32,000 nucleotides of DNA from Breznakia sp. PF5-3 (lineage in GTDB: Bacteria; Bacillota_I; Bacilli_A; Erysipelotrichales; Erysipelotrichaceae): assembly GCF_029504745.1 (NCBI RefSeq), contig NZ_JAQFIQ010000025.1:1-32000 (forward strand). Direction: 5' to 3'. The translations under genes were made by a program, and so were the position numbers. Position 1 is the first letter of the stretch. Each line of letters opens with the position of its first letter. Below are positions 1,838 through 31,343 of this stretch, one piece after another. Under the pieces are notes generated by a model that did not search any database, was not told where the DNA came from, and saw nothing but the letters and a program-made list of their open reading frames with translations.

Positions 1838-4597
1838 TTATTTATTAAACTTATATTTCTTTGCCAAACCAGCCAAAATTGCTATTCCTGATAAACCAAT
1901 CAATGCTAATAATGCATTTGTATTTGTTGTATCTCCAGTTGCTGGATCTGTGCTTGGTTTAACTATATCTTTTGGTTTCTCTGATGGTTTTGGACTAGGT
2001 TTTACAGGATCAGCATTCTTTTCCCACTTTGCATAAAGTGTTTTGTGTCCATTAATCGTATGCGTATCAAACTCCCATACCGTTGTACATCCAGATTCAT
2101 GATGCCATCCTTTGAATGTGTATCCTGCTCTTGTAGGTGCTGAAGGCTCTGATACAAAGTCCCCTACTCTTAATCCTGTTTGTGAACTAACAGAACTTCC
2201 TCCTTGAGAATCAAATGTAACTGTATATAATTCAGACCATTGTGCATATAATATTGTATCTTTTGTTATATTGAATGTACCATTTTCAGTATATGAAACT
2301 CCTGATCCATTTGCTTCCGTGTTCCATCCAACAAACTCATATCCTTCTTTACTAATACTACCAGGTCCTTTTACCACAACTTGTCCACCTGAAACATAGT
2401 CAATATTATCTACTGGTGCAGTTCCTGTTCCAGTATTTACATCATATGTTACATTGTATGTTGTTGCTAAACCCCATACTGCATATAAAGTAAGATTTTC
2501 TTTTGCATGCGTAACTGCTGTTCCTGGATCATATGTTGTGTCTGCTGCTGTTGCAGAAGGGTCTGTTGACCATCCAAGGAATACACGAGTTGGGTGAGCA
2601 GCAGATAACGCTGTTCCACTCTTAATTGTTCCATCTAATCCAATATATCCAACATCGTAGTAAGTCGTTGTCTTATTACTAGCATCTACCTCATAATATT
2701 TAGTACCATCGTAAGCTGTTAATGGACTTAATGTGAAATCTCCACCATTTGCATCATATTTCACAAAAGTACTCTCTACAGCTCCAATATCTTTAAATCT
2801 ATTAAATGTACGTTGATCTCCTCCACTAAGCTCACTAGAAGTTTTATTTTCTGCTAAACCTTCTGGCTTAATTGGAATTGTTGGAACCACCATAGCTTCC
2901 ACACCTGCTTTTATAGAAGAATAATTTGCTGTCAACATAACATTGTTTTTACCCAATACATCTTCTATTGTATTCGCTGGTGTAGCTCCTTTATCTACAT
3001 TAACTAAGTTGTTATTCGTTTGTACAGTTGAATAATTAGAAATATCTTTATATGTACTAGCAGTATTTATCACACCTGTAGAACCATATACTTGATTTCC
3101 AATAAACAGCGAATCATTTCTTGTTGCTGAAGCACCTACAGAAGATCCACTCATTCCTAATGCTCCACCTTTTTGATCAATCGTAGAGTTTTCATTACCT
3201 GATACATTCCCTACAAATGTACATCCTGTGATTGTATTAGTAAATGTTGTTCCAGTGAATCCATTTCTATAATATTGAATAGCTCCACCACTTACATCTC
3301 CACCATCAAGACCATAAGCATGATTGTTATAGAATGTACTATTGGTAATTGTTGTAGCAAACCCTGGTTTTCCTGTTCCTTGGAACATGATAGCTCCACC
3401 ATCATCTGTTGCAATATTACTATCAAATGTTGTTTTATCAATTGTGAATGTTGCTCCATCTTTTCCATCAATTACATAAATAGCTCCACCATCATATGTA
3501 TTCTCAGTAGATGATGCTGTACCACTTGTCTTATTCCCATAGAAGTAAGATTCATTAATTGTCACTTGTCCTTGTAGATAATGGAATGACATTGCACCTC
3601 CACCTCCACCAAAAGGTCCACTCTTTACACAGTTATTTACATTGTTTCTAAATACCGTGTTATTGACATCTAATGTTCCTGAGTGTTGTTTTGATGCAAT
3701 CGCTCCACATTCATAACCAGCTCCTGTTGCTGAATTATTCTCAATAGTTGAGTAATTTATAGTAACCTTAGCTTCTTTAGCAAGCAACACTGCCGATGCT
3801 GAATTAACTGATGTATTGTTTTTAATTGATGTTTTATTAATAACTGTAGTTGCCGGTGCAAAGGTTGTTACATCAATAGCACCTGCTGTTGCATTTTGAA
3901 ATGTCATTTCCTCAAGCGTTAGTGTTCCTGCAGTATGTGTTGTACTAAGCAACCTTGAAGAAATACTTGTTCCATCAACTGTTAAATTCTTAATTGTTAA
4001 TGAACCTGTTCCTGCACCATTAACATTTATTGATCCTGCGTTCCATACACAACCATTTCCATCGATTGTAACATTTACATTTGGCATTGTGATTGTAATA
4101 GGACCTGATACAAATCCAGAAGCCAATGTATATACATCACCTTCTGCAGCAGTACTTAATGCGCTTTGCAATTCGCTAACATTACTTACTGTTTGAGAAA
4201 TTCTTGGTGCTTTTGCTAAAGATTTTGCAGCACCTACACTTGGTTCACCTTGTGCGCCCTTTGTCTCTTCTTTTACTGTAACGACTCTTTCTTTTGTTAC
4301 AACATCACCATCCACAGGATGGATTGCTTCATACGTGATTGTATACGTATTTTCTACTGAGACATCAAATCCTCCATCGTCCTTAATAGACACGTCCACA
4401 GCTTCTCCATTTTCGTCCACCGCGCTAACACCATCTAGCAAGTTAAATGTCTCATCAAATTGATTAACGCTCACATCTTCAGCTATAATACTTAATTTTT
4501 CCTCTAGTACCTCTGCATTCACTATCATTTTTTGGATTGGTATCAATCCCACAAATAGCACTAGCAAAGCAATAAAAGCTTTAATTGATTTTTTCAT
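1838..4597 (-). CDS. Cell-surface protein: signal peptide, Ig-like domain, right-handed parallel beta-helix (Pmp-like GGAI repeats), 3 Listeria-Bacteroides (Flg_new) repeats, Pro/Lys-rich stalk, LPXTG-like anchor
   Basis: 919-aa ORF. The N-terminal MKKSIKAFIALLVLFVGLIPI is a signal peptide. Repeated GGAI/GGAL...N motifs occur (GGAIYVIDG, GGAIMFQG, GGAIQYYRN, GGALGMSG). Three repeats are of the YxVxFDxxGG...GYxFxGW...LYAxW type. The C-terminus reads PVKPSPKPSEKPKDIVKPSTDPATGD, then a hydrophobic helix, then KKYKFNK. Confidence 0.85.
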   Translation of the reverse strand: MKKSIKAFIALLVLFVGLIPIQKMIVNAEVLEEKLSIIAEDVSVNQFDETFNLLDGVSAVDENGEAVDVSIKDDGGFDVSVENTYTITYEAIHPVDGDVVTKERVVTVKEETKGAQGEPSVGAAKSLAKAPRISQTVSNVSELQSALSTAAEGDVYTLASGFVSGPITITMPNVNVTIDGNGCVWNAGSINVNGAGTGSLTIKNLTVDGTSISSRLLSTTHTAGTLTLEEMTFQNATAGAIDVTTFAPATTVINKTSIKNNTSVNSASAVLLAKEAKVTINYSTIENNSATGAGYECGAIASKQHSGTLDVNNTVFRNNVNNCVKSGPFGGGGGAMSFHYLQGQVTINESYFYGNKTSGTASSTENTYDGGAIYVIDGKDGATFTIDKTTFDSNIATDDGGAIMFQGTGKPGFATTITNSTFYNNHAYGLDGGDVSGGAIQYYRNGFTGTTFTNTITGCTFVGNVSGNENSTIDQKGGALGMSGSSVGASATRNDSLFIGNQVYGSTGVINTASTYKDISNYSTVQTNNNLVNVDKGATPANTIEDVLGKNNVMLTANYSSIKAGVEAMVVPTIPIKPEGLAENKTSSELSGGDQRTFNRFKDIGAVESTFVKYDANGGDFTLSPLTAYDGTKYYEVDASNKTTTYYDVGYIGLDGTIKSGTALSAAHPTRVFLGWSTDPSATAADTTYDPGTAVTHAKENLTLYAVWGLATTYNVTYDVNTGTGTAPVDNIDYVSGGQVVVKGPGSISKEGYEFVGWNTEANGSGVSYTENGTFNITKDTILYAQWSELYTVTFDSQGGSSVSSQTGLRVGDFVSEPSAPTRAGYTFKGWHHESGCTTVWEFDTHTINGHKTLYAKWEKNADPVKPSPKPSEKPKDIVKPSTDPATGDTTNTNALLALIGLSGIAILAGLAKKYKFNK

Positions 4598-4883
4598 TTT
4601 GGTCGCCCCCCATCATATCAATTTAAATCTTGTTTCATTGTTTATATAATATATGCTTTTACTTACTATTACTATATCACCTTATTTCCTTCCTAATATA
4701 TCTTGTTATCAACAGATAGAAAAATGTTACCAATCAAGGTTAAAATTATTCCCTCTATAGTATAGACTTTTTAGGAATTAAATTCGTTCATGAAAATTTC
4801 ATTTTTTTCATATAAATTATTTATATTGTTTAACATTCCTTAATTTCACTCGTAAAAATCCGTAGATATAGCTCGTTTTTCAG

Positions 4884-4932
4884 ACAAAAATAAGTGAGAA
4901 ATAGCATCTTTTTAAAATACTACTTCTCACTT
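4884..4932 (-). terminator. Putative terminator of the GRE operon
   Basis: AAGTGAGAA (4892..4900) pairs with TTCTCACTT (4924..4932), and extra AT-rich pairing is possible in the 23-nt loop. On the minus strand ATTTTTG follows. It lies directly after the activase stop (4937). Confidence 0.5.
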
Positions 4933-4936
4933 TACA

Positions 4937-5824
4937 TCATCCACCTACTTTTAATTCGATGTCATATGCTTTTGCAATATCAATGTATGGAAATAAGTCC
5001 TCTTTGTTTAATGTGTTTTCATTCCAAGGATATGGTTTTATCATTCTTTCATACTTACTTTTCCCCAACAAATGATATGGGAGAAAATTAACTTTTTTAA
5101 TTCCTATCGTTTGCGCATACTTCAATATCGCTTCCAATGTTTTAGGATCATAGTTAAATTCTGTAATCACTGGAACTCGCAATATAACTTTACGAGGATC
5201 AATAGTTTCTAAGTTTTTAAATACAATAGATAAATCTCCTCCGCATATTTCACGATACATATTTTTATCAATATGTTTTAAATCAAATAAGTATAAATCA
5301 ATATAAGGATCAATTTCTTCAATATAAGAATTTGAGAAATTCCCACAAGTTTCAATTGCCACGTGAAGATTCTTGTGTTTAAACTCTTTCACTAAAGCCA
5401 ATAAACTTTTAAATTGAGTAAATGGTTCTCCACCAGATATCGTTACTCCTCCATCGCTAGCTTCATAATAGTCAATATCTTTCATAACTTCTTCTACTAC
5501 ATCCGCATAAGACATTGCTTTTCCTGATATCTCCAAAGCCCCAGTTGGACAATTATCTACGCAAACCTGAAGATTCTTACATTTGCTATCATCATAGTGG
5601 AATTCATCATCTACAAAAGTAATTGCTTTGCTTGGACAACTGTATTCGCAAGTACGACATTTGATACATTTTTTCTTATCATACAATAAAATTGGATTAG
5701 GATCTTGTGATTCAGGATTTGCACACCATGGACAATGCAATGGACATCCTTTTAAAAATACTACCGTTCTTATTCCAGGTCCATCATGCGTCGCAAACCT
5801 TTCAATATTAAATACATTAATCAT
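4937..5824 (-). CDS. Glycyl-radical enzyme activating enzyme (radical SAM, PflA family, with ferredoxin-like Cys-rich insert)
   Basis: 295 aa. The radical-SAM motif is CPLHCPWCANP (CxxxCxxC, residues 27-34). Extra clusters are CIKCRTCEYSCP and CKNLQVCVDNCP. The start overlaps the GRE stop by 8 nt (5817..5824). Confidence 0.85.
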   Translation of the reverse strand: MINVFNIERFATHDGPGIRTVVFLKGCPLHCPWCANPESQDPNPILLYDKKKCIKCRTCEYSCPSKAITFVDDEFHYDDSKCKNLQVCVDNCPTGALEISGKAMSYADVVEEVMKDIDYYEASDGGVTISGGEPFTQFKSLLALVKEFKHKNLHVAIETCGNFSNSYIEEIDPYIDLYLFDLKHIDKNMYREICGGDLSIVFKNLETIDPRKVILRVPVITEFNYDPKTLEAILKYAQTIGIKKVNFLPYHLLGKSKYERMIKPYPWNENTLNKEDLFPYIDIAKAYDIELKVGG

Positions 5825-8108
5825 ACAATTCTCGACTTAATAATTCTTCTTGAATATCTTTGGTAAGATTCACAAAGACCGCACTATATCCTGCTACTCG
5901 GACAATTAAATCCGGATAATTATCTGGATGCTTTTGTGCATCCTCTAAAATGCCATGATCCACAACTGTAACCATCAATTGACAACCACCCTTTTTAAAA
6001 TATGTATCAAATAAAATCTTAATCTTTTCTCGATCTTCATTAAACATTCGTGGTGTGAATTTAATATTTTGTACACTTCCACCATGATATTTTGCCTTAA
6101 ATGTTGCCAAAGAATTTAGTGTTGCAGTAGGTCCACTTTTAGCTGCACCACCTTGTGGATTATTCGCAGGATTCATAAATACTCCTCGTAAGCGCCCATC
6201 TAAAGATGCATCTGTTTTATGACCCCAATCAGTATTCGTTTGGTTATTACTAATTACAATTAAATAATATCCCATGCCTTTATCAATCCCTCTTTGACGA
6301 ATACCATTCGCAACATACTCAAAAAGATCATTCGCTAAAGCATCACAAGCTTTATGATCATTTCCATATTTTGGTGCATTCAATAAATCTTTCCTTAGTT
6401 TTGCATGACCTTCAAAATTAACCAAGGCAGCATCATGCAATTCTTTCAGTGTGTATTTTTCCTGTTCAAATACCAATGTTTTAATTGCATAAAGAGCATC
6501 GCTTGTATTGATGTTGCCATACGTTTCATTGGTTCCCCCAAGAATCAAAACACCACCATCCAAAAGCGCTTTTCCTCGTTCTATACAATCATCCATCAAA
6601 ATACTTGTAAATAAGAAAGATACTTCTTTGTTCATTACATCATACGAATGATATTGAGCTTCGATACTTAAATCAAAGTAATAATCTAATACTTTCTTAT
6701 ATTCACTATATAAATCATCAAAGCGTACATAGGATTCTAATGGTTTCACTGCAAAAGGAACTTTCCGCTTTCCATCCATGGAATCAATTCCATCATTTAA
6801 TGTAATATTAAAAATTTTCAATAAATTCAATAACGTATTTGGTGTTCCTACACTTTTTGCTGTAATTACAAATTCACCACAGCCAAATGGAACATATTGT
6901 TCTGCTGTTTTACGATCTACGCGCATTGCATATTCTACGGCAGGAACATTTACTTCATCATTATATAAGGTAGGATATGTAGCTCCACTACCAATACAAT
7001 CATATGCCATATCTAAAATATCTTGTGGTGTTTCTTCATAAATACGAAGTGTAAACTGAGGTTCAACATAACGTGTATCTTTACATACTCGTAAGCATAA
7101 ACGAGTAAACATATCTGCTGCTTCAACATGTTCTCTTCCTCGTCCACCAACAATGATTCTACCATTTACGGTTGTTCTTCGATTTTCAATCATTTTCCAT
7201 AAAGAACGTACATACCGATAAGCATCTTCTTCACTAAGGCGTCCTTCATCCAAGTCACGTTTTAAATATGGACCTAATACATCGTCCATACGTCCATAAT
7301 TTATGACTCCTGCAACCATTGCATAAATCCAAAACAACTGCAATGCTTGATGGAATGTTTTAGGTGTATGATCACGAATATAAAGTAAATCATTTTCCAT
7401 TAGTTTTAAATCTGCTAGACGTGCAGCATCAACATCTTGTTTTGCTTCATGAACAAGTTCAACTTGTTTATCGATTACAACTTTTAAAAGCTTTAAACTT
7501 TCTATTGAACTTTGCATAAATGCATTTTGTGGTTTTGAAGAAATTAAATCAATTAATCCTGGGATTCCATACTTCATAAGTTTTTTATAATCTAACATCA
7601 TTCCACTTAATCTTGCGGTTGCCATAAAAGGATAATCACAATCAATAAACCTACCCGTTGTTGTATCATTTAACACGTCTCGGCAATAGATTGCTTTCAC
7701 ATCATGGTCTTGCCAATATTCATACAACGCATCAACACGTTGTCTTTCTTCTTCACTTGTTAATTCATCTTTAAATTTTCTTAATTTATGAAACACACAA
7801 TAATGACCAACACCACCAATACTTGTAACACTACCAAATCCTATTGGTAAAAAATCAAGTCTTCCTGCAAGCAAATCATCTTCTTCAATAGATCTAAACA
7901 ACACAGGAAAAATTGTTTTTAAACAGTTTATCTCTCGCTCTGCTTTATCTAAACCAGCGCTATCTTGATGTGCTTTTGTGTATGCTTCCATAATGGCTAA
8001 TTGTTCACTTGGTGTTTTTTCACTAGGAATTTGAACACTCACCTCAACATTTTGTTCGCCATCAATATTAATTTTTGCCATCTTAATGCTTTGCTTTCTC
8101 TGCCTCAC
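5817..8108 (-). CDS. Glycyl radical enzyme, PFL-like 1,2-eliminase class, substrate unknown
   Basis: 763 aa from GTG 8108, or 754 aa from ATG 8081, which lies 1 nt after the upstream stop. The C-terminal glycyl-radical motif is IVRVAGYSAVF (Gly740, nt 5889..5891). The Cys loop is PFGCGEF (Cys410 at 6879..6881, Glu412), the Cys-x-Glu pattern of dehydratase/lyase GREs rather than the Cys-Cys of PFL. Confidence 0.85.
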   Translation of the reverse strand: MRQRKQSIKMAKINIDGEQNVEVSVQIPSEKTPSEQLAIMEAYTKAHQDSAGLDKAEREINCLKTIFPVLFRSIEEDDLLAGRLDFLPIGFGSVTSIGGVGHYCVFHKLRKFKDELTSEEERQRVDALYEYWQDHDVKAIYCRDVLNDTTTGRFIDCDYPFMATARLSGMMLDYKKLMKYGIPGLIDLISSKPQNAFMQSSIESLKLLKVVIDKQVELVHEAKQDVDAARLADLKLMENDLLYIRDHTPKTFHQALQLFWIYAMVAGVINYGRMDDVLGPYLKRDLDEGRLSEEDAYRYVRSLWKMIENRRTTVNGRIIVGGRGREHVEAADMFTRLCLRVCKDTRYVEPQFTLRIYEETPQDILDMAYDCIGSGATYPTLYNDEVNVPAVEYAMRVDRKTAEQYVPFGCGEFVITAKSVGTPNTLLNLLKIFNITLNDGIDSMDGKRKVPFAVKPLESYVRFDDLYSEYKKVLDYYFDLSIEAQYHSYDVMNKEVSFLFTSILMDDCIERGKALLDGGVLILGGTNETYGNINTSDALYAIKTLVFEQEKYTLKELHDAALVNFEGHAKLRKDLLNAPKYGNDHKACDALANDLFEYVANGIRQRGIDKGMGYYLIVISNNQTNTDWGHKTDASLDGRLRGVFMNPANNPQGGAAKSGPTATLNSLATFKAKYHGGSVQNIKFTPRMFNEDREKIKILFDTYFKKGGCQLMVTVVDHGILEDAQKHPDNYPDLIVRVAGYSAVFVNLTKDIQEELLSRELYD

Positions 8109-8832
8109 GCCAATTGTCTTGATAACCTCCTAGCAAGTCTACAAAACGTTTCGCTGTTAAATGAGGCCTTGTGATAGCACTACCAACAACCACACTATGT
8201 GCTCCTAAGAAAATACACTTCATTGCATCCTCTGGAGTATAGATATGTCCTTCCATCATCACATATGCATCATCTTTAAAATCACGGCACATCTTAGCAA
8301 ATTCCCGCATATCTGGTTCTTCAATGTGTTGTGTTTCTGGAGTATATCCATATAATGTAGGAGCAATGATATCCGCTCCATTTTCAATTGCTCTTAATGC
8401 TTCTTCATAATTGGATACATCCGCAAAAATAATAGCTTCTGGAATTTCTTTTTTTACTTCTTTAATCAAATCCCAAGCTTGAGTTCCTTCATGTGTCTTT
8501 TGATTTGTACAATCCAAAGCAATGATTTCAGCTCCTGCTTCCCAAACCTGTTTTGCTGATTGTAAAGTTGGCGTAATAAACACTTCTGTATCATCATGCC
8601 ATATTTTATATAAACCAATTAAAGGTAAATCTACCTTTTCTTTGATTGCTTTTATCTGTTCTGGAGAATTTGCGCGAATCCCAACAGCTCCTGCCCATTT
8701 TGCAGCTTCTGCCATCTTTACCACAATATCATCCGTATAGATTGGATCATCATGTTGAACCTGACATGATACGATTAAACCACCTTTAAAACTTTCTAAA
8801 ATTGCTTTTTTTCTTGCATCTGTTGTTTTCAT
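8083..8832 (-). CDS. NanE-like protein (N-acetylmannosamine-6-phosphate 2-epimerase family TIM barrel)
   Basis: 249 aa. The N-terminal FKGGLIVSCQV...GAVGIRAN...DLPLIGL pattern is typical of NanE. Its start overlaps the DeoR stop in ATGA (8829..8832). Confidence 0.7.
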   Translation of the reverse strand: MKTTDARKKAILESFKGGLIVSCQVQHDDPIYTDDIVVKMAEAAKWAGAVGIRANSPEQIKAIKEKVDLPLIGLYKIWHDDTEVFITPTLQSAKQVWEAGAEIIALDCTNQKTHEGTQAWDLIKEVKKEIPEAIIFADVSNYEEALRAIENGADIIAPTLYGYTPETQHIEEPDMREFAKMCRDFKDDAYVMMEGHIYTPEDAMKCIFLGAHSVVVGSAITRPHLTAKRFVDLLGGYQDNWREAEKAKH

Positions 8833-9605
8833 TTCTTTTCCTCCTTACAGATTTTTACTTTTTTATTCTTTTTTATATGTTTTGGATATTCATCAACATA
8901 TACTTCATCAAAATCTTCAAGATACGCAAAGGTATACATTGCTTTCATCTCAAACTTTGTATGATCTACCATTGCATATTTTCGTTTACTACGTTCCATA
9001 ACATTTTTCTTAACCAATCCATTATCAATTTCAACATTATAAAATTCACCTGTATCCAAATCAAATCCATTGGCACTTATAAAACATCGATCAAAGTGAA
9101 GCTTTTTGATTTCTTCAATCGTAATGCTTCCCCAATTCATATCGTATTTTTCATTGTACTCACCACCCAAGACTAAAATCTTGGCAATTGCTCCACGAAG
9201 GTGACGAACAACATAATGAGAATTGGTAACAATTGTAATCTTACGATTCATCAAATATGGGGCTAAATAAGCAGTCGTCGTCCCTGAATCAACAAATATA
9301 CATTCATTCTCTTCAACGACTTGACTAGCACATCGTGCAATGCAATCCTTCTCTTTTTGATTAAGTTTTTCCTTTTCATCTACGGTAACTTCACTAAAGG
9401 ATGTAATTGTTTCACTGAAGTTATGGGGTAATGCCCCACCACGTTCACGTTCAATCTTTCCATCTTTTTCAAGCTTTCGTAAATCTCTTTGAACTGTCGA
9501 TAAAGAAACATTTAACTCTTTCGACAGCGTACTTACACTAATCGATTGATTACTTCCCAATCGTTTAATGATATAGGCTAATCGTTCTTTGGCTAACATA
9601 AACAT
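8829..9605 (-). CDS. DeoR-family transcriptional regulator (N-terminal HTH plus DeoR-C sugar-phosphate-binding domain)
   Basis: 258 aa. The HTH region is VSTLSKELNVSLSTVQRDLRKLEKDGKIERERGGA. The DeoR-C region is IFVDSGTTTAYLAPYL...ITIVTNS. The likely true start is the third codon (ATG 9599), 6 nt after GAGGAG. Confidence 0.85.
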   Translation of the reverse strand: MFMLAKERLAYIIKRLGSNQSISVSTLSKELNVSLSTVQRDLRKLEKDGKIERERGGALPHNFSETITSFSEVTVDEKEKLNQKEKDCIARCASQVVEENECIFVDSGTTTAYLAPYLMNRKITIVTNSHYVVRHLRGAIAKILVLGGEYNEKYDMNWGSITIEEIKKLHFDRCFISANGFDLDTGEFYNVEIDNGLVKKNVMERSKRKYAMVDHTKFEMKAMYTFAYLEDFDEVYVDEYPKHIKKNKKVKICKEEKK

Positions 9606-9612
9606 CTCCTCA

Positions 9613-9640
9613 TATATACTATACCTTTATAGGATGTCAA
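9613..9640 (-). promoter_or_regulatory. Putative sigma-A promoter of the deoR-nanE-like-GRE-activase operon
   Basis: The minus strand reads TTGACA (9640..9635), a 16-nt spacer, then TATATA (9618..9613). This would give a very short leader ending at the SD. Confidence 0.45.
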
Positions 9641-9645
9641 ATGCA

Positions 9646-9681
9646 AGTCATTATTAGTCATATTGAGTCATATTAAGTCAT
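9646..9681. repeat. Four direct AGTCAT hexamers with exact 10-bp phasing (candidate DeoR-type operator)
   Basis: AGTCATTATT AGTCATATTG AGTCATATTA AGTCAT, with copies starting at 9646, 9656, 9666 and 9676. They lie just upstream of the minus-strand -35 and 37 bp upstream of the plus-strand T-box promoter. Confidence 0.6.
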
Positions 9682-9717
9682 GTTTTGATTTTGATTTATA
9701 AATTCCTTCAAAATACA

Positions 9718-9746
9718 TTGACACCTAGCCCTCTCTATGATAAATT
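9718..9746 (+). promoter_or_regulatory. Sigma-A promoter of the T-box-controlled ABC transporter operon
   Basis: TTGACA (9718..9723), a 17-nt spacer, then an extended -10 TGaTAAATT (9738..9746). Confidence 0.65.
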
Positions 9747-9754
9747 TTAATAAA

Positions 9755-10023
9755 CCATTGATTGGGAGATAAAACAAAAATAAGTGCTTATAGAGAGTTG
9801 GCCATAGGTGGAAGGCTAATAGAGATGCTGTTTTGTAAATGGACCCATGAGGGCTAGATGAAAGCTGTAATAGTTAGTATTCAAGACGTTCACCTACGTT
9901 ACAGGGTTAAGAATGTGATAGCATTTGAAAGTTGGACTTTTTAGTCAAACAAGGTGGCACCGCATGTGTTTATATACACTTGTCCTTGATGTCTTTTATA
10001 GACGAGGACAAGTGTTTTTTATT
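9755..10023 (+). promoter_or_regulatory. T-box riboswitch leader, specifier UGG (Trp)
   Basis: Stem I has GA (K-turn) motifs TGA 9759..9761 and TGA 9848..9850, and a closing helix TGGG 9763..9766 / CCCA 9844..9847. It has an AGAGAG bulge and a distal loop AGGTGGAA. The specifier loop ends in AAA-TGG-A (TGG 9840..9842). The T-box sequence is AACAAGGTGGCACCGC (about 9948..9963). The terminator is ACACTTGTCCT (9976..9986) / AGGACAAGTGT (10005..10015) followed by T8. Confidence 0.85.
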
Positions 10024-10071
10024 TCACTTCACCAAAATGCATCATCAAACATATATAAGGAGGAAAAGAAA

Positions 10072-11046
10072 ATGAAAAAATTATTATGTTTGGGTTTAAG
10101 CATGTTATTTGTTTTTAGTTTAGTTGGTTGTGGTAATGATGACAGTGGCGATGATAAAGCGTTTAAGGTTGGTATCGTACAAATTGTTGAGCATCCTTCA
10201 TTGGACACGATTCGTGAAGCAACAGAAAAACAATTAAAAACATATGATGGAAAAATCGAAGTATTATACGAAAATGCTGGTGGAGATCAAAGTATGTTAA
10301 ATACCATCTGCCAACAATTTAAAGAGCAAGACGTAGATGTGATTATTGCAATTGCTACACCAAGTGCTCAAGCTGCAGCAAACTTCTCAGATGAAATTCC
10401 AGTGGTTTTCTCAGCAGTAAGTGATCCAGTTGGTGCTGGTTTAGTTAAAGATTTAGAAAAACTAGATGGAAACATCACTGGAACAAGTGATGAAATCCAA
10501 GTTGACTTAATTATGGACTTAGCAATCGAAATGTACCCAGAAACTAAATCCGTAGGGTTCTTATATAACTCTGGAGAAGCAAATTCAGCTTCTAACCTTG
10601 ATAAATTGAAAGCATATGCAAAAGATAATAATCTTAGTGTTGTTGAAGGCCCTTTTACAAACACGAGTGAAATTCAAGCATCAACACAATCACTCATTGA
10701 TAAAGCAGATATTATTTTTGCACCAAATGATAATAGCGTAGCAAGTGCAATGGATGTCGTATCAAGTCTTACAAAAGATTCAAAAACACCATTGTTTGTA
10801 GGAGCTGATTCAATGGTTGGAGACGGTGGTTTAGCAACCGTAGGTATCAACTATGAAGAACTTGGGAAAGAAACAGGAAACATGGTTATACAAATTTTGG
10901 ATGGAACTTCACCAAGTGATATTCCAGTAAAAGTTTTTAAAGAAGACTTAAATGTTTATATTAATACTAGTGTTGCTGAAGCAATTGGCTTTGGTTCAAT
11001 CGATACACTAAAAGAAAATCACAAGGATGTTGTTGAAATAAAATAG
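10072..11046 (+). CDS. ABC transporter substrate-binding lipoprotein (ABC_sub_bind / COG2984 family; TrpX-like)
   Basis: The true start is ATG 10072 (AAGGAGG 8 nt upstream). The track ORF from 9925 runs through the T-box terminator. The signal peptide has a lipobox (MKKLLCLGLSMLFVFSLVGC). KVGIVQIVEHPSLD is typical of COG2984 binding proteins. Confidence 0.8.
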   Translation: MKKLLCLGLSMLFVFSLVGCGNDDSGDDKAFKVGIVQIVEHPSLDTIREATEKQLKTYDGKIEVLYENAGGDQSMLNTICQQFKEQDVDVIIAIATPSAQAAANFSDEIPVVFSAVSDPVGAGLVKDLEKLDGNITGTSDEIQVDLIMDLAIEMYPETKSVGFLYNSGEANSASNLDKLKAYAKDNNLSVVEGPFTNTSEIQASTQSLIDKADIIFAPNDNSVASAMDVVSSLTKDSKTPLFVGADSMVGDGGLATVGINYEELGKETGNMVIQILDGTSPSDIPVKVFKEDLNVYINTSVAEAIGFGSIDTLKENHKDVVEIK

Positions 11047-16623: not shown

Positions 16624-17415
16624 TTATAAGGTCATGTTTTGTCTATATTCCACAGGACTTTGATAACCTAAAGTTGAATGCACTCGCTTATTGTTGAACC
16701 AATATACGTATGCGGATAATTCTTGTTCCAAATTCAGCAATGATGCAAACGTTCTTTCGCGGACGAATTCAGTTTTGATTATTTTGAAATGTGCTTCTGC
16801 AACTGCATTGTCGTATGGATTTCCTTTCCTACTTAAGGATCTGTCAATTCCAAATGTTTCTAATACATTATCGATTAAATAATTATCAAATTCATTACCT
16901 CTATCCGTGTGGAAAATATTGTATTCAAATAGATTTCCTTTGATGCTTAAAAATGCTTGTTTCACAAGTTTTGCATCTTTATATTTCCCACAACTATAAC
17001 CAACAATCTCCCGGTTATACAAATCGATAACTACACAAATGTAATTCCATTGGTTATTCACCCTAACGTACGTTAAATCACTTACTATGACTTCTTTTGG
17101 GTTTCTGTTATCAAATTCTCGATTTACTTTATTTTCTATTTTTGCTTCATTAACAGTTGTCTTATGTACTTTATATTTCTTCACTGTATATACCGATACA
17201 AGTCCATTTTGACGCATAATCCGTGCAATTCTCCTTCTCGAGATACAAATACCTTGTTTCGCTAATGAATGCTTGATTTTCCGTGTTCCATAGACTTTCT
17301 GATTATCATTAAATATTCTAACTACAATATCATTGTAATTATCAACCTTTGCAACCTTATCTTGGTATTTATAATATCCAGATCTCGAAATATTTAATGC
17401 CTTACACATTTTCAC
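16624..17415 (-). CDS. IS3-family transposase OrfB (rve / DDE integrase core)
   Basis: DDE candidates lie in VSDLTYV, HTDRGNEF and DNAVAEA. The C-terminal HSTLGYQSPVEY is typical of IS3. OrfB-like sequence (IKVIRANAHKYSV) continues upstream of the annotated start, back to a TAA at 17455..17457. Confidence 0.8.
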   Translation of the reverse strand: MKMCKALNISRSGYYKYQDKVAKVDNYNDIVVRIFNDNQKVYGTRKIKHSLAKQGICISRRRIARIMRQNGLVSVYTVKKYKVHKTTVNEAKIENKVNREFDNRNPKEVIVSDLTYVRVNNQWNYICVVIDLYNREIVGYSCGKYKDAKLVKQAFLSIKGNLFEYNIFHTDRGNEFDNYLIDNVLETFGIDRSLSRKGNPYDNAVAEAHFKIIKTEFVRERTFASLLNLEQELSAYVYWFNNKRVHSTLGYQSPVEYRQNMTL

Positions 17416-18285: not shown

Positions 18286-18903
18286 ATGAAAAAAACTAAT
18301 ATGAAACGTTTTACGCTTTTAGCACTTTTCATCGCAATTGAAATTGCTGTAAGTGTCATCCCCTTTTTGGGATTTATCCCTTTGGGATTTATCAATGCTA
18401 CAACATTGCATATTCCAGTAATTGTAGCTGCGATTCTTTTAGGAAAAAAAGAAGGAGCAATTGTAGGATTCGTCTTTGGACTAATTTCGCTTATTAAGCA
18501 TACATTAGAACCTAGTGTATCCAGCTTTATCTTTTCTCCTTTTATTACGATTGGTGGAACAAGTGGAAACTTTGCCAGCTTATTGATTGCCATTGTACCA
18601 CGTACATTGATTGGTTTCCTATCTGGATTTCTATATGAAATATTATCAAAAAGAAAGATAAATGATGTAATATCTATTAGCATTAGTGCGGTTGTTGGTT
18701 CTCTTACCAACACTATTTTAGTACTTGGAGGTATCGTTGTTTTCTTTGGTAGAGCATATGCTGATGCCATAGCGATTCCATATAATACCCTTTTAACCTT
18801 TATCATGGGGATTGTAACTTCCAGTGGTATTATAGAAGCAATTGTAGCTGCTATAATTGCGGTAGCAATATGTAAAGCGGGGAAAAGAGTTCTTTCTTTA
18901 TAA
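18286..18903 (+). CDS. panT: ECF transporter S-component, probable pantothenate-specific (PanT-like)
   Basis: 205-aa protein with about six TM helices of the small ECF S-component type. GGAGG lies 5 nt upstream of the ATG. Pantothenate specificity is inferred only from its position directly upstream of coaBC-coaX. Confidence 0.6.
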   Translation: MKKTNMKRFTLLALFIAIEIAVSVIPFLGFIPLGFINATTLHIPVIVAAILLGKKEGAIVGFVFGLISLIKHTLEPSVSSFIFSPFITIGGTSGNFASLLIAIVPRTLIGFLSGFLYEILSKRKINDVISISISAVVGSLTNTILVLGGIVVFFGRAYADAIAIPYNTLLTFIMGIVTSSGIIEAIVAAIIAVAICKAGKRVLSL

Positions 18904-18912
18904 GGAGTTTAT

Positions 18913-20085
18913 ATGAAAAAAACAATCGTTATCGGTGTTACAAGCAGTATCGCTACATATAAAGCGGTACAACTTGTTAGTGACCTGTTGAAATTAGATT
19001 ATGATGTAGAAGTTATCATGAGTAAAAATGCATGCGAATTTATTCAACCATTAACTTTTTCATCACTTACCAAACATAAGACATATGTAGATACTTTTGA
19101 TCGTGAAGTTGATTATCAAGTAGAACACATTTCATTAGCAAAAAAAGCAGATGTATTTATGATTGTTCCTGCTACTGCCAATGTGATTGCCAAAGTTGCT
19201 CATGGGATATGTGATGATATGCTAACAACCACTTTCTTGGCTGCTGAATGTCCTAAAATCATTGCACCTGCAATGAATACAAGAATGCTTAGCAATCCAA
19301 TTACACAAGACAATCTAAAACGTTGTAAGGATTATGGAATGCAAATCGTAGAACCCGAGAATGGGCTCTTGGCTTGTGGTGATCAAGGAGCAGGAAAATT
19401 AGCTAAGATTGATGATTTAATTGAGTATATTGATATGGCAGCCTATAGTGAAAAACCACTGATAGGAAAAAAGGTATTAATAAGTGCTGGTCCAACCGTT
19501 GAAAAAATCGATCCTGTTCGTTATATCTCTAATCACTCAAGTGGTAAAATGGGATATGCACTAGCTAGAGCAGCAAGAAACATGGGAGCAAATGTAACCC
19601 TTGTTAGTGGACCTGTAAATATAAAAAAGCCAAACGCCATAAACGTCATTGATATTAGCAGTGCCGAAGAAATGGCACAAACAATAAAAGCAAATTATGA
19701 TGATAGTGATTATGTAATTATGGCAGCAGCTGTTGCCGACTTCACACCCACACATATGGAAAGTGAAAAAATCAAAAAGAAAGATGCTGTGAATTCATTA
19801 GAATTGAAAGCTAGTGAAGACATTCTAAAGTATCTTGGAAAGCATAAAAAACATCAGAAACTTTGTGGTTTTGCCATGGAGACAACAAATGTTCTTAAAC
19901 ATGCAAAAGATAAGTTTAAGCAAAAAAATTGTGATTTGCTCGTTGTAAATGATTTAAACGAACATGGAGCAGGATTTAAAGTTGACACAAATAGAGTCAC
20001 GCTAATTGATAAACATGATGTTCAAGAATTAACACTGATGAGTAAAGAACAATTAGCGTATACTATTTTGAATAAATTAATATGA
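18913..20085 (+). CDS. coaBC: Bifunctional phosphopantothenoylcysteine decarboxylase / phosphopantothenate-cysteine ligase
   Basis: 390 aa. The N-terminal flavoprotein domain is IVIGVTSSIATYKA...PATANVIAK. The CoaB domain contains ISNHSSGKMGYALA. Confidence 0.9.
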   Translation: MKKTIVIGVTSSIATYKAVQLVSDLLKLDYDVEVIMSKNACEFIQPLTFSSLTKHKTYVDTFDREVDYQVEHISLAKKADVFMIVPATANVIAKVAHGICDDMLTTTFLAAECPKIIAPAMNTRMLSNPITQDNLKRCKDYGMQIVEPENGLLACGDQGAGKLAKIDDLIEYIDMAAYSEKPLIGKKVLISAGPTVEKIDPVRYISNHSSGKMGYALARAARNMGANVTLVSGPVNIKKPNAINVIDISSAEEMAQTIKANYDDSDYVIMAAAVADFTPTHMESEKIKKKDAVNSLELKASEDILKYLGKHKKHQKLCGFAMETTNVLKHAKDKFKQKNCDLLVVNDLNEHGAGFKVDTNRVTLIDKHDVQELTLMSKEQLAYTILNKLI

Positions 20086-20102: not shown

Positions 20103-20873
20103 ATGTTAGTAGTTGTAGATATAGGGAATACAAATATTACGATTGGATTGTTCAGGGGCGATGATCTCATCGCAAACTATCGTTTGACCACACTTGCTAA
20201 GCGTACAAGCGACGAGTATGGATTTTTGATTACCAGCTTTTTAAATAATGAGCACATTAAACCAAGTGATGTTCAGGATGTAATCATTGCAAGTGTCGTT
20301 CCAAAAATTATGTACTCTTTTAATAATTCAATTCGAAAGTATTTTAAAAAAGAACCAATCATTGTTGGTCCAGGAATTAAGACTGGTATTTCAATTAGGA
20401 TTGATAATCCACGTGATTTAGGTGCTGATCGTTTAGTTGATGCAGTGGCCGCTTACTATATCCACAAGGGGAATGTCCTAGTTATTGATTTTGGTACAGC
20501 TACAACATTTGATTATATCAATGAAAAAGGAGAGTTTGTTGGTGGAGTAACAAGTCCTGGAATTGAAATTGGAGCACAAGCAATGGCTGCAAAAGCAGCG
20601 AAGCTTCCAGAGATTGAAATCAAGGCAAGTCCAGGAGTGCTAGCTACCAATACAATCGATAGTATGCAAGCTGGTGTATATTTTGGTTACATTGGCCATA
20701 CGGAATATATTATAAAAAAATTTAAAGAAACAGTTTCTAGTGATTTAAAAGTTGTTGCTACCGGTGGGCTAGGTAGAATTATTGCAGAAAATACAGAGAT
20801 GATTGACGTGTATGATCAGGATCTGACATTTAAAGGATTAAAGATGATTTATGATCGAACAAAAAAAGGTTAA
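20103..20873 (+). CDS. coaX: Type III pantothenate kinase
   Basis: 256 aa with the VVDIGNTN, LGADRL and DFGTATT motifs of the CoaX / ASKHA fold. Confidence 0.9.
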   Translation: MLVVVDIGNTNITIGLFRGDDLIANYRLTTLAKRTSDEYGFLITSFLNNEHIKPSDVQDVIIASVVPKIMYSFNNSIRKYFKKEPIIVGPGIKTGISIRIDNPRDLGADRLVDAVAAYYIHKGNVLVIDFGTATTFDYINEKGEFVGGVTSPGIEIGAQAMAAKAAKLPEIEIKASPGVLATNTIDSMQAGVYFGYIGHTEYIIKKFKETVSSDLKVVATGGLGRIIAENTEMIDVYDQDLTFKGLKMIYDRTKKG

Positions 20874-21575: not shown

Positions 21576-22196
21576 TGAAGTGCACCCCGTTATTTGGACA
21601 ACCAAGTAATGGAGGTGCATTTTATTATGGTAAAGTTAACAAGGGATCAAAAAACAAGCATTTATGAAGAACGAAAAAATGGAGCACAGATGTTTCAGAA
21701 TTTCATATCGCAGCAGGAAAACTTTATTTATCCCCCATTTTAGATATGCATAATCGAGAGATTGTATCCTATAACATATCTAATAGTCCAAATTTTAAAC
21801 AAACGCAAGAAATGCTTGATAAGGCCTTTTCTAAGTATGAAAAGCTTGATGGTTTATTATTTCAATCGGATCAAGGTTGGCAATATCAAATGTATCAGTA
21901 TCATAAAGCATTGGCAGATAGAGAAATCATTCAATCAATGTCGCGTAAAGGGAATTGTCTGGATAATTCACCAATGGAAAATTTCTTTGGAGTAATGAAA
22001 AGAGAAATGTTTCATGGACATGAGTTTGAGTTTAATACATTAGAAGAATTAGAAGTCGCAATGGAAGAGTATATTGATTATTATAATAATCAAAGAATAA
22101 TAACAAAATTAAAAGGATTAACTCCTGTGCAACACAGAAATCAATCCTTAATGATTTAATCGTTAATACAGTGTCCAACTAATTGGGTTCACTTCA
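21576..22196 (+). mobile_element. Internally deleted IS3-family element (621 bp) with intact terminal inverted repeats
   Basis: The left IR is TGAAGTGCACCCCGTTATTTGGACA (21576..). The reverse complement of the right end (..22196) is TGAAGTGAACCCAATTAGTTGGACA. A 3-bp TTA flanks both ends (21573..21575 and 22197..22199). Confidence 0.75.
21686..22159 (+). pseudogene. Truncated IS3-family OrfB (C-terminal ~157 aa) joined out of frame to the first ~20 codons of orfA
   Basis: The orfA start is ATG 21627, giving MVKLTRDQKTSIYEERKNGAQ. From 21686 another frame reads TDVSEFHIAAGKLYLSPILDMHNREIVSYN...SDQGWQY...RKGNCLDNSPMENFF...LTPVQHRN, which is an rve core. The track ORF 21746..22159 is only its ATG-initiated part. 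Confidence 0.75.
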
Positions 22197-25742: not shown

Positions 25743-25754
25743 ATAACCAATACA

Positions 25755-25985
25755 AAAAACGTTGACTAGGAGAGTATACTTATTATTTGTATCCAGCGAG
25801 ATGTTACAGAGTGGAAGTACATCATATAAATATAAGTAGAAACGCACCTACGAGTTCTTGTGGGAATTTAGTATCACAAGACGCATCATCTGCGTTACAG
25901 ATAGAGTGGCTATTTTTAGCAACTAGAGTGGTACCACGTGTGGATAACAAGCGTCTCTGGATATTTCCAGATGACGCTTTTTTAT
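25755..25985 (+). promoter_or_regulatory. T-box riboswitch leader, specifier CGC (Arg)
   Basis: GA motifs are TTGA 25762..25765 and CGAG 25851..25854. The closing helix is TAGG 25767..25770 / CCTA 25847..25850. A long stem pairs ACTTATTATTT with AAATATAAGT. It has an AGCGAGA bulge and a distal loop AGAGTGGAA. The specifier loop reads AGTAGAAA-CGC-A (CGC 25843..25845). The T-box sequence is AACTAGAGTGGTACCACGTG (25921..25940). The terminator is AAGCGTCTCTGGA / TCCAGATGACGCTT (25949..25979) followed by T5. Confidence 0.85.
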
Positions 25986-26022
25986 ATCTTGTCAACCAAA
26001 AGGTAAAAAAGGAGAACTACTT

Positions 26023-27240
26023 ATGAAAAAAGAAATAAAAAAGATTGTACTAGCTTATTCTGGTGGATTGGATACATCAGTGATGATCCAATGGTTAAAA
26101 GAAAATTATGATAATCCTGAAATCATTGCTGTTTCTGGCGATGTTGGGCAAGCGGATGAATTGGAAGGATTAGAAGAAAAAGCACTAAAGACAGGTGCTA
26201 GCAAATTCTATGCTTTGGATTTAAAAGATGAATTTGTGGAAGACTTTATCTTCCCTTGTTTAAAAGCAAATGCTGTATACGAAAACGTATATTTATTAGG
26301 AACTGCTTTTGCTCGTCCACTTATTGGAAAAGGATTGGTTGATGTTGCACTTAAAGAAGGTGCCGATGCAATCTGTCATGGATGTACAGGAAAAGGAAAT
26401 GATCAAGTACGTTTCGAATTAGCAATCAAAGCCTTTGCTCCTGAAATGGAAATCATTGCCCCTTGGAGAACTTGGGAATTAAAATCAAGAGAAGATGAAA
26501 TTGCATATGCTGAGAAACACAATATTCCATTAAAAATAAACAGAGAAACAAACTATTCTAAAGATAAAAATATTTGGCATTTATCGCATGAAGGGTTGGA
26601 TTTGGAAGACCCAATGAACGAACCGAAATATGATCAAATCTTAGAAATGGGAGTTACTCCAGAAAAAGCACCTGATGTTCCTACGTATATTACGATAGAG
26701 TTTGAAAAAGGAATCCCTGTTGCTTTAGATGGAAAAAAGATGAAAGCACAAGAATTGTTACTTGCTTTAAATAAAGTTGGTGGTGAAAACGGTGTTGGTA
26801 TCATCGATATGGTAGAAAATCGGTTAGTTGGTATGAAATCAAGAGGGGTTTATGAAACACCTGGAGGAACGATTCTTTATAAAGCACACGAACTATTAGA
26901 AAGCATTACACTTGATAAAGAAACACAGCACTACAAGCAACAAATAGCAATCAAGTTTGGTGAAATCTTATACAATGGATTGTGGTTTACACCATTAAGA
27001 GAAGCATTGAGTGCTTTTGTAGATAAAACTAGCGAAACGGTAAATGGAAGTGTCAAACTAAAGTTATATAAAGGAAATATCACAAGTGCAGGAATCTCTA
27101 GTCCTGATACCTTGTATTCAGAACAAATTGCATCTTTTGGTGAAGATGATTCCTACGATCAAAATGATTCAGCAGGATTTATTAATTTATTTGGTTTACC
27201 AATCAAGGTAAAAGCCATGATGGACGCAAAAAAGAAATAA
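26023..27240 (+). CDS. argG: Argininosuccinate synthase
   Basis: 405 aa with the [12 protein letters not shown]-pyrophosphatase motif and [13 protein letters not shown]. Confidence 0.95.
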
Positions 27241-27241
27241 C

Positions 27242-27670
27242 ATGATTCGTTTAGCAACAATTGAAGATTATTCACAAATGTTTGCATTATGGAAAAATAC
27301 CATCGGTATGGGAATACGTTCACTTGATGATTCTAAAGCAGGAATCCAAAAGTTCATGAAACGCAATCCAAAGACAAACTTTGTGGCTGTAGAAGATGGA
27401 ACTATCATTGGTACTATCTTATGTGGACACGATGGACGACGTGCTTATATCTACCACATGGTAATAAAAGAAGCATATCGTCAACAAGGAATTGCTAAAC
27501 AATTGGTCGATCAAGTAATTGATGCATTACAAAAAGAAGATATCTACAAAGTAGCTTTAGTCACATATAAAACAAACAAACTTGGAAATGCCTTTTGGGA
27601 AACCATCGGCTTTCAAAAAAGAGAAGACTTAAATTATCGAAACTTATCACTAAATATAGAAAATGTATAA
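27242..27670 (+). CDS. GNAT-family N-acetyltransferase embedded in the arg operon
   Basis: 142 aa. The acetyl-CoA-binding motif is RQQGIAKQLV (Q/RxxGxG/A). Its ATG lies 1 nt after the argG stop. Confidence 0.8.
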   Translation: MIRLATIEDYSQMFALWKNTIGMGIRSLDDSKAGIQKFMKRNPKTNFVAVEDGTIIGTILCGHDGRRAYIYHMVIKEAYRQQGIAKQLVDQVIDALQKEDIYKVALVTYKTNKLGNAFWETIGFQKREDLNYRNLSLNIENV

Positions 27671-27683
27671 AAAGGAGAAGCTT

Positions 27684-29060: not shown

Positions 29061-29061
29061 G

Positions 29062-30102: not shown

Positions 30103-30113
30103 AAAGGAACATC

Positions 30114-31331: not shown

Positions 31332-31343
31332 GAGGTGATAGAA

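Follow-up and report, generated by a model that had tools for sequence, protein, structure and literature searches.

Glycyl radical enzymes (GREs) give strict anaerobes a chemistry beyond the reach of polar enzymes, and members such as CutC, HypD and IslA shape host-relevant metabolites in the gut. The closest described systems to the one reported here are YbiW and PflD of Escherichia coli, as recounted from Ma et al. (JACS 2024) in PMC13450708 and PMC12441222. According to these accounts, both are C-O lyases, classed as GRE isomerases, that act on 1,5-anhydroglucitol-6-phosphate (AG6P) and 1,5-anhydromannitol-6-phosphate (AM6P) and yield 1-deoxyfructose-6-phosphate for subsequent cleavage by the aldolase FSA. 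A Cys-x-Glu (CXE) motif defines the 1,2-eliminase and isomerase classes of GREs, all characterised CXE-type enzymes are eliminases or isomerases, and every one of them works by thiyl hydrogen abstraction, deprotonation by the glutamate and loss of the adjacent substituent (PMC13450708). The same review, dated June 2026 and covering all characterised GREs, notes that entire clades are still without a function and contains no pathway with a NanE-type enzyme. Here we describe a four-gene operon located in a 32,000-nucleotide stretch of Breznakia sp. PF5-3 (contig NZ_JAQFIQ010000025.1, positions 1 to 32,000; hereafter the window), which encodes a DeoR-family regulator, a NanE-like epimerase, an oxygen-sensitive GRE and its activating enzyme. 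The operon probably encodes an undescribed radical route for the breakdown of a phosphorylated sugar. On balance, and with modest confidence, we favour a new GRE family that acts on a hexose-6-phosphate-type substrate derived from the phosphotransferase system (PTS) within a DeoR-controlled catabolic operon. This view builds on gene content, catalytic motifs, conserved linkage, separation from known families, association with PTS genes and operator-like repeats, all of which were directly established. It agrees with the overall interpretation of an original prediction made from the window alone, which is supported as far as sequence reaches, with an amino sugar as a hypothetical substrate.

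The operon and its glycyl radical enzyme

Four minus-strand open reading frames (ORFs) at window positions 4937-9605 are translationally coupled. They encode the DeoR-family regulator (8829-9605), the NanE-like phosphosugar epimerase of 249 aa (8083-8832), the GRE of 754 aa (5817-8081) and the radical-SAM GRE-activating enzyme, or activase, of 295 aa (4937-5824). The deoR and nanE-like genes overlap by 4 nt (8829-8832), a 1-nt gap, read from the sequence cattaagATG, separates the nanE-like stop from the GRE start codon ATG 8081, and the GRE and activase genes overlap by 8 nt (5817-5824). The ORF calls bear out the predicted four-gene operon and all of its junctions. The span originally given, 4937-9681, does contain the four genes, whereas its part from 9606 to 9681 is noncoding and holds a TTGACA box and ATGACT repeats. 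On the same strand, 5 nt past the activase stop, lies an intrinsic-terminator-like stem-loop (4882-4932) with a 19-pair stem (4932-4892) followed by the T-run ATTTTTGTCT. An Rfam search returned no RNA element in the operon. As part of the whole reading, we consider it somewhat probable that 4937-9605 is a self-contained, DeoR-controlled catabolic operon of this strain.

The true start of the GRE is almost certainly ATG 8081, because the encoded protein is 100% identical to a 754-aa NCBI protein (P0001) of Breznakia sp. PF5-3, its homologues measure 754-756 aa, and the N-terminal residues G8, Q10, N11, E13, V14 and S15 are invariant among them. The alternative start GTG 8108 was rejected in its favour. 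The catalytic residues first reported as Cys410, Glu412 and Gly740 are indeed present, but those numbers count from GTG 8108; the correct ones are Cys401, Glu403 and Gly731. All features of the PFL-like branch of the GRE superfamily were found: a PFL-like barrel domain (PF02901, 2.9e-118), a C-terminal glycine-radical domain (PF01228, 9.7e-26) with the RVxG motif, the catalytic cysteine and a nearby activase. In the translation, the Cys loop reads FGCGEF and the radical glycine lies in RVAGYSA.

The three catalytic residues are invariant across 25 members of the GRE family. We also aligned 70 representatives of the wider clade with YbiW, PflD, glycerol dehydratase (GDH) and HypD. Cys401 aligns with Cys433 of GDH, Cys441 of YbiW and Cys454 of HypD and is invariant in 70/70 clade members, and Glu403 is kept in 69/70. 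The C401-G-E403 loop and this alignment confirm the Cys-x-Glu motif of the eliminase and isomerase classes, as originally proposed, in place of the Cys-Cys pair of pyruvate formate-lyase (PFL). The public annotation, 'pyruvate formate lyase family protein', and the PFL-like Pfam domain would make the enzyme a paralogue of PFL (formate C-acetyltransferase), an identity to which we give next to no credence. It is effectively refuted by the lack of a Cys-Cys pair, the loop being G-C-G-E; moreover, the protein scored 90.7 bits against a cut-off of 994 on the PFL model TIGR01255, and PFL structures matched at only ~69 bits over the C-terminal third. The public name is wrong in kind.

Placement against other characterised families, a check suggested with the original prediction, matched none of them. 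The GRE fell below every NCBIfam equivalog cut-off, missing those of the 1,2-eliminases by a factor of at least 4: it scored 263 bits against 1100 for HypD, 250 against 1000 for HpfG, 238 against 1050 for CutC and 209 against 1109 for the PflD-type model NF007437. Scores for the CutC, HypD, HpfG, HpsG, indoleacetate decarboxylase and hydroxyphenylacetate decarboxylase equivalogs ranged over 199-263 bits with cut-offs of 1000-1150, and even the broad subfamily model TIGR01774 was missed (297 against 678). Among all PDB sequences, the top scores of 200-218 bits were shared without clear preference by propanediol dehydratase (9RCO), CutC, glycerol dehydratase, HypD and YbiW. Identity to YbiW and PflD of E. 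coli K-12 was 26.9% and 25.9%, respectively, so the high identity to a characterised enzyme that would have spoken against novelty was not found. By these measures, no CHARACTERISED family includes the GRE. When 1.84 billion representatives were searched exhaustively with HMMER, it fell into a large clade of ~730-790-aa GREs with 33-53% identity (350-870 bits), far closer to it than the characterised enzymes, and representatives of this ~750-aa clade likewise fail all NCBIfam cut-offs. Within the GRE family itself, conservation is 70-80% across orders, with members in Erysipelotrichaceae, Lachnospiraceae, Clostridium, Listeria, Lacticaseibacillus and Coriobacteriia. In terms of sequence, this is a new functional family inside the GRE superfamily and not a new kind of system. 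A paralogous subfamily is represented by a second GRE with its own activase in a Hungatella metagenome-assembled genome (MAG; locus L016, 111-2393), which is 50% identical to the window enzyme and lies 5 kb upstream of a family member.

The active site sets the clade apart as well. R157, R308 and R316 are invariant in 67-69/70 representatives and D323, E519 and N612 in 62-69/70, and all six are missing from YbiW, PflD, GDH and HypD. These residues lie at or beside substrate-contact positions of GDH, where Tyr339 is replaced by N306, Asn341 by R308 and Tyr640 by S611, and the GDH His164 loop is deleted. The three invariant arginines, together with the smaller, polar residues, suggest a larger, anionic and hydroxyl-rich substrate. 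No catalytic residue was lost in this comparison, another of the checks proposed at the outset, as Cys401, Glu403 and the glycine loop all align with those of YbiW, PflD, GDH and HypD. The window enzyme thus shares the CXE motif and glycine loop with GDH, propanediol dehydratase, CutC and HypD, its best sequence matches (208-218 bits; TM-scores 0.75-0.80), but differs from them in its substrate contacts and in a gene context of sugar phosphates without microcompartment genes. A Foldseek search of the PDB did not discriminate among eliminases and isomerases (TM-scores 0.75-0.81), the highest query-normalised value being that of YbiW (0.81).

The activase scored 318 bits on TIGR02494 (cut-off 174). 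It carries Radical_SAM, Fer4_12 and Fer4 domains, a CX3CX2C motif that the translation places at Cys27, Cys31 and Cys34, and a ferredoxin-like Cys-rich insert.

The NanE-like partner and the regulator

The second protein of the operon belongs to the NanE family (PF04131, 6.8e-51; NCBIfam NF002231, 251 bits against 189) and matches NanE structures at E-values of 1e-43 to 1e-48 (3e-48 for 1YXY). Residue roles were taken from the Staphylococcus aureus and Clostridium perfringens enzymes, whose catalytic residues are, in S. aureus numbering, Gln11, Arg40, Lys63, Asp124, Glu180 and Arg208 (PMC8482478). Their equivalents Gln24, Arg53, Lys76, Asp138, Glu194 and Arg222 are kept in every complete subfamily member, and the subfamily also keeps the acetamide-contacting positions Tyr163 and Phe85 (Phe/Tyr) and the second NanE signature motif, VG[SG]AxTR. 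The first signature motif, x-P-x-I-G-I-x-K-[basic] (PMC8482478), is altered, the window protein reading L-P-L-I-G-L-Y-K-I. Following the catalytic lysine, 52/52 subfamily members have isoleucine or valine and then Trp-His, whereas NanEs in the PDB and 4 canonical paralogues have lysine or arginine. The resulting signature of K-[I/V]-W-H, Q26, W46, P57, Q59, H196, Y198, S218 and H224 forms part of ~35 subfamily-specific positions, accompanied by a conserved C-terminal extension.

Compared with the S. aureus, C. perfringens and Streptococcus pyogenes NanE structures (PMC8482478), the NanE-like protein retains the fold, the catalytic hexad, the acetamide tyrosine, the phosphate-loop glycines and the second motif; it differs in overall identity (~40% to canonical NanE as against at least 66% within the subfamily), in reading K-I/V-W-H in place of K-K/R-x-Y, and in its gene context. 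Neither nanA, nanK, nagA nor nagB lies adjacent here or was found among the recurrent neighbours of related loci. Canonical NanE, to which the ~40% identity applies in these genomes too, coexists with the NanE-like gene in four loci (L025, L038, L045 and L069) and directly downstream of it in Breznakia pachnodae (L090). Two NanE types in one genome point to different substrates, and the annotation 'N-acetylmannosamine-6-phosphate 2-epimerase' probably names the wrong one for the NanE-like protein. The same subfamily also accompanies a 53%-identical relative of the GRE (P0121), which means that both proteins diversified together. The NanE-like protein belongs to a separate subfamily and is a dedicated partner of the GRE. 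Our literature search found no paper linking a GRE to NanE, to DeoR and PTS, or to the window GRE family, and the earlier assertion that no characterised GRE pathway uses a NanE-type enzyme held both there and in PMC13450708.

The regulator has both domains of the DeoR family (DeoRC, PF00455, 6.8e-42; HTH_DeoR, PF08220, 1.9e-11) and falls below every NCBIfam equivalog cut-off, the best being GlpR_Halo (143 bits against 300). Its true start is more likely ATG 9599 than ATG 9605, because a GGAG at 9609-9606 lies 6 nt upstream of the former yet abuts the latter. A promoter-like region on the minus strand (9612-9640) combines TTGACA at 9640-9635 with an AT-rich TATATA element 16-18 nt downstream; it was not flagged by a consensus scan and its assignment is tentative. 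Next to it, at 9646-9681 on the same strand, lies a candidate DeoR operator made of four direct ATGACT repeats with 10-bp spacing (9681-9676, 9671-9666, 9661-9656 and 9651-9646). The arrangement ATGACTN4ATGACT occurs three times in this segment as against 0.32 expected in the whole window, and 0/100 shuffles reached 4 matches. The exact ATGACT motif is also present upstream of nanE-like in two related loci (L001, L006), and in roughly 13-15 additional loci the first core gene has 3-4 repeats of the TGAAY/TGACT/TGATT type with 10-bp phasing upstream of it. Binding to phased direct repeats is a known mode of DeoR-family repressors. The ATGACT repeats may thus serve as an operator, with a sugar phosphate as the inducer.

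Conservation of the gene neighbourhood

To place the operon in context, we collected 80 loci from species-representative genomes and clustered their ORFs. Several loci come from MAGs and some taxonomic labels are doubtful (Segatella for L015, Bacteroidaceae for L027). Linkage was counted in 56 loci, those that had 3 kb or more of flanking sequence on each side. Among these, an activase gene adjoins the GRE gene in 49, a deoR gene lies within 6 kb of it in 42, the NanE-like gene is present in 40 and all four genes occur together in 30. At least five gene orders were found, including DeoR-NanE-GRE-ACT (ACT, activase), GRE-ACT-DeoR-NanE, NanE-GRE-ACT(-DeoR), GRE-ACT-NanE, GRE-ACT-DeoR-HAD-NanE and arrangements with a divergent activase. 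The hosts span two phyla and comprise Erysipelotrichales, Lachnospiraceae, Clostridium vincentii, Peptacetobacter, Listeria immobilis, Lacticaseibacillus and Coriobacteriia. The GRE-nanE-like-deoR neighbourhood is thus conserved across orders and two phyla, which settles in the affirmative a test put forward with the original prediction, and the permuted gene order argues for selection for linkage as opposed to inherited synteny.

Such linkage bears on the possibility that the two enzymes share an operon by coincidence, the NanE-like protein being an ordinary N-acetylmannosamine-6-phosphate 2-epimerase and the GRE acting on an unrelated diol, amino alcohol or sulfonate. The NanE-like protein does pass the NCBIfam NanE subfamily cut-off with all catalytic residues kept, and the best sequence and fold matches of the GRE include glycerol and propanediol dehydratases. 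We nevertheless hold this to be very unlikely, since the linkage survives many rearrangements in two phyla, the NanE-like subfamily differs from the canonical NanE of the same genomes, and the substrate residues of GDH are replaced (His164 loop deleted, Tyr339 to Asn, Tyr640 to Ser) while three arginines are added. In addition, no microcompartment, aldehyde dehydrogenase or sulfite reductase genes were found near the core.

When the Pfam domains of 115 operon neighbours were counted, recurrence hinted at a pathway function for PTS components and HAD phosphatases alone; MATE, ABC and Pribosyltran genes were recurrent too but look like bystanders. PTS genes, either Man-type IIA-D or Fru-type EIIABC, stand beside the core in at least 14 loci. 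Man-family IIA-D operons accompany NanE-containing clusters in L003, L012, L053, L055, L069 and L083, the last of which carries a 53%-identical relative, whereas in loci of Hungatella and Lacrimispora without the NanE-like gene, a Fru-family EIIABC gene lies ahead of DeoR-GRE-ACT. These transporters support the phosphorylated-sugar substrate that had been claimed, as far as can be judged from sequence. The earlier remark that the operon lacks a transporter is true of the window, and has to be read beside the PTS genes of those related loci. HAD phosphatases are found in or beside the operon in several genomes, of the Cof type in L018, L030 and L042 and of the HAD_2 type in L002.

Further pathway candidates are more sporadic. 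In B. pachnodae (L090, 4215-10433), the NanE-like gene lies apart from the GRE in an operon that encodes a GPI-like cupin, a 580-aa protein without a family match, a GntR regulator, DeoC, an RmlD-like short-chain dehydrogenase/reductase (SDR), the NanE-like protein and canonical NanE, with PHI, RPE and a transaldolase-like gene just upstream. DeoC passes its equivalog cut-off here (207 against 117), and the core has the same DeoC and RmlD-like pair beside it in L001, L024 and L025. PMI-like cupins, HPS/PHI, FSA, FucO, a zinc-dependent alcohol dehydrogenase, a classical SDR (adh_short) and a divergent GH94-like protein occur sporadically. FSA lies within 8 kb of the core only in L021 and L071, and in L001 and L025 it lies beside a PflD orthologue.

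Several related loci deserve separate mention. L001 (13366-17167) and L025 (11543-15343) carry true orthologues of PflD, 54-57% identical to the E. coli protein, along with FSA and an activase of their own, less than 3 kb from the GRE cluster; two different sugar-phosphate GRE systems are thus neighbours in these Erysipelotrichaceae. In Faecalibacillus, a very prevalent genus of the human gut (L087, 9786-12575), the last gene of a GRE-ACT-DeoR-AraC-NanE-like operon encodes a 929-aa protein for which only a GH94 Pfam domain was detected, with no PDB match at E<=1e-10, no NCBIfam match and hence no functional clue. More distant clade members have a mixed context: P0122 lies beside corrinoid methyltransferase genes and the surroundings of P0127 are uninformative. 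P0125, which is 40% identical to the window enzyme (L085, 1-10202), occurs with a GH38 alpha-mannosidase, RpiB, lyxose/mannose isomerase, an RPE-like epimerase and a ROK kinase, a context that hints that the wider ~750-aa GRE clade handles manno-configured sugar phosphates.

Proposed pathway and competing explanations

What follows on the substrate and the regiochemistry, on whether the GRE or the NanE-like protein acts first and on the downstream steps is inferred. The sugar would be imported and phosphorylated by a PTS, encoded elsewhere in the genome in Breznakia sp. PF5-3 and adjacent in other genomes, and the sugar phosphate would probably free the DeoR-family regulator from the phased promoter repeats. 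The activase would install the radical on Gly731. A thiyl radical at Cys401 would then take hydrogen from a carbinol carbon of the hexose-6-phosphate-type substrate while Glu403 deprotonates that hydroxyl, and the substituent on the neighbouring carbon would depart, by 1,2-elimination or ring-opening isomerisation, to give a deoxy-carbonyl sugar phosphate. The NanE-like protein would catalyse proton transfer adjacent to a C1 carbonyl, most simply C2 epimerisation, and so either supply the epimer used by the GRE or process its product.

Among specific routes we prefer the following, although we think it rather unlikely to be correct in full. In this scheme, a 2-substituted (amino, acetamido or hydroxy) gluco-hexose-6-phosphate would be converted by the NanE-like protein into its manno epimer with an axial C2 substituent, which the GRE would strip to leave 2-deoxy-3-keto-hexose-6-phosphate. 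An RmlD-like SDR could reduce this to 2-deoxyhexose-6-phosphate, and DeoC could cleave the latter into acetaldehyde and erythrose-4-phosphate. The scheme accounts for the DeoC, SDR, alcohol dehydrogenase and HAD neighbours. Its central step would resemble the chemistry of ribonucleotide reductase (RNR) run without a reductant: in RNR, once a thiyl radical has taken hydrogen from the carbinol at C3, the substituent at C2 departs, which gives a 3-keto-2-deoxy intermediate. The likeness to class III (anaerobic) RNR would be one of mechanism and by analogy only, as the window GRE is PFL-like with no family-level homology to RNR and its keto product would leave the enzyme for reduction by a separate SDR. 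Two points speak for epimerisation first: Man-PTS clusters have the NanE-like gene and Fru-PTS clusters do not while the GRE is nearly the same, and an axial (manno) C2 leaving group would be well placed for radical beta-elimination.

Various observations weigh against our reading as a whole, some against its order of steps. No transporter, kinase or aldolase is encoded in the window, and apart from the recurrent genes named above the extended neighbourhoods are heterogeneous. Fru-type PTS genes adjoin the core in 8-9 Lachnospiraceae loci. In 8 Lachnospiraceae loci, a Fru-type PTS, DeoR, GRE and activase occur without the NanE-like gene, which is thus not universally adjacent to the GRE. The GREs of these 8 loci are 83-90% identical to the NanE-linked GREs of Lachnospiraceae loci L003 and L012 and no alignment column was found that separates the two groups, which argues that both use the same GRE substrate. 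The DeoC and RmlD-like link is limited to four related Erysipelotrichaceae genomes and could reflect an independent sugar module that happens to lie nearby. Substrates without a carbonyl are the usual reason for radical chemistry, which speaks for the GRE acting first; that order has a difficulty of its own, in that a 1,2-elimination giving a C1 aldehyde would abolish the C2 stereocentre. Finally, an AlphaFold2 model of the GRE built from a 25-sequence family alignment had a confidence (pLDDT) of 70.5, falling below 50 in the glycyl domain and in several loops of the active site, and is too poor to support the arginine geometry around Cys401.

The preference for substrates without a carbonyl also lends weight to a different explanation, possible though not our first choice, in which the GRE is a third isomerase or dehydratase of the 'anhydroglycolysis' type. 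It would act on the phosphate of a sugar analogue that has no carbonyl, such as an anhydro-hexitol, a hexitol phosphate or 2,5-anhydromannitol-6-phosphate, and itself create the carbonyl. Its product would be a 1-deoxy-ketose-6-phosphate or 2-deoxy-aldose-6-phosphate, which the NanE-like protein would epimerise, isomerise or cleave by a retro-aldol reaction ahead of an FSA- or DeoC-type aldolase. YbiW and PflD are the only known sugar-phosphate GREs and share with the window enzyme a PFL-like architecture, the same CXE motif, a dedicated activase and the logic of PTS, GRE and aldolase. PflD is also similarly short (765 aa), a parallel drawn correctly in the original prediction, which had called these enzymes dehydratases, a label since replaced by that of GRE isomerases (C-O lyases giving 1-deoxyfructose-6-phosphate). 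The E. coli clusters hold a Fru-type PTS, a HAD phosphatase (ybiV), FSA and propanediol dehydrogenase, and genes for a HAD phosphatase, an aldolase or an alcohol dehydrogenase lie nearby in some genomes here, the matching neighbours being Fru-type PTS, HAD, FSA (L021, L071) and FucO. YbiW further gave the highest query-normalised TM-score, true PflD orthologues with FSA adjoin the cluster in L001 and L025, and the Trp and His substitutions beside the catalytic lysine of NanE could fill an empty acetamide pocket.

However, the identity of the window GRE to YbiW and PflD reaches just 26-27%, which puts it at no smaller distance from them than from GDH, CutC or HypD. These two enzymes lack R157, R308, R316, D323, E519 and N612 of its clade, and their partner is FSA, in contrast to a NanE-like epimerase and DeoR here. 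The PflD-type model that the window enzyme misses (209 against 1109 bits) and the 54-57% identity of true PflD orthologues underline the distance, and since such orthologues coexist beside the cluster, the window GRE and PflD are not functionally redundant. FSA is rarely adjacent to the core, the acetamide contacts Tyr163 and Phe85 of NanE are kept, and a 2-deoxy or 1-deoxy product has no C2 stereocentre in the register of NanE. No Man-type PTS is known to transport polyols.

The HAD-type sugar phosphatases in or beside the operon in L018, L030, L042 and L002 would also fit detoxification or metabolite repair. The GRE and the NanE-like protein would then convert a toxic dead-end sugar-phosphate analogue, formed through promiscuous PTS uptake, to a compound open to dephosphorylation or cleavage, in a process that does not support growth. 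Most genomes, including that of the window, have no dedicated transporter or downstream enzyme beside the core, and AG6P is a known toxic analogue (PMC12441222). We judge this improbable, as dedicated PTS operons beside the core in 14 loci and a repressor of the sugar-phosphate type resemble an inducible catabolic system, and 70-80% conservation of the family across orders implies strong selection.

Returning to the favoured catabolic reading, the window GRE family falls among the clades to which no function has been assigned. It offers a tractable case, with a compact set of PTS, regulator and operator, epimerase, GRE and activase. The family is widespread in gut anaerobes and common in human gut metagenomes, the NanE-like partner from Faecalibacillus alone being indexed in 1718 blocks of the searched collection. 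Once solved, it would join 'anhydroglycolysis' as a second kind of pathway that uses radical chemistry on sugar phosphates, define the function of a large clade of ~750-aa GREs and put right thousands of annotations that read 'pyruvate formate-lyase' or 'ManNAc-6-P epimerase'. If the specific route through the manno epimer were true, it would be both the first case of a GRE that uses a reducing sugar phosphate and the first of a pathway that combines a GRE with an enzyme of the NanE type.

The remainder of the window holds several other features. A secreted surface protein of 919 aa is encoded directly downstream of the operon (1838-4597, minus strand). It has a pectate-lyase-like beta-helix region, a C-terminal membrane anchor and two Listeria-Bacteroides repeats, bears no relation to the GRE cluster and is missing from the other loci. 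Divergent from deoR, a TrpX-like ABC substrate-binding lipoprotein is encoded at 9700-10075 (plus strand). Its TTG start at 9925 looks spurious, as a signal peptide MKKLLCLGL begins near 10073, and a promoter-like site at 9718-9746 would leave a leader of ~320 nt, which has no Rfam match. Fragments of IS3-type transposase/integrase genes (rve domains) at 16624-17415 (minus strand) and 21746-22159 (plus strand) bracket a CoA-biosynthesis block made up of an ECF S-component (18286-18903), coaBC (18913-20085) and a type III pantothenate kinase (20103-20873). An arginine-biosynthesis operon (26023-32000, plus strand) contains argG, a GNAT acetyltransferase gene, argH, argC, argJ and argB, the last cut by the window end. 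Directly upstream of it lies a T-box leader (Rfam RF00230, 109.5 bits against 93) at 25753-25961 on the plus strand, and a listed 79-aa ORF that overlaps this leader (25787-26026) is probably spurious. At the opposite edge of the window, 242-1729 on the minus strand encodes a DUF1846 protein (PRK13663, 818 bits).

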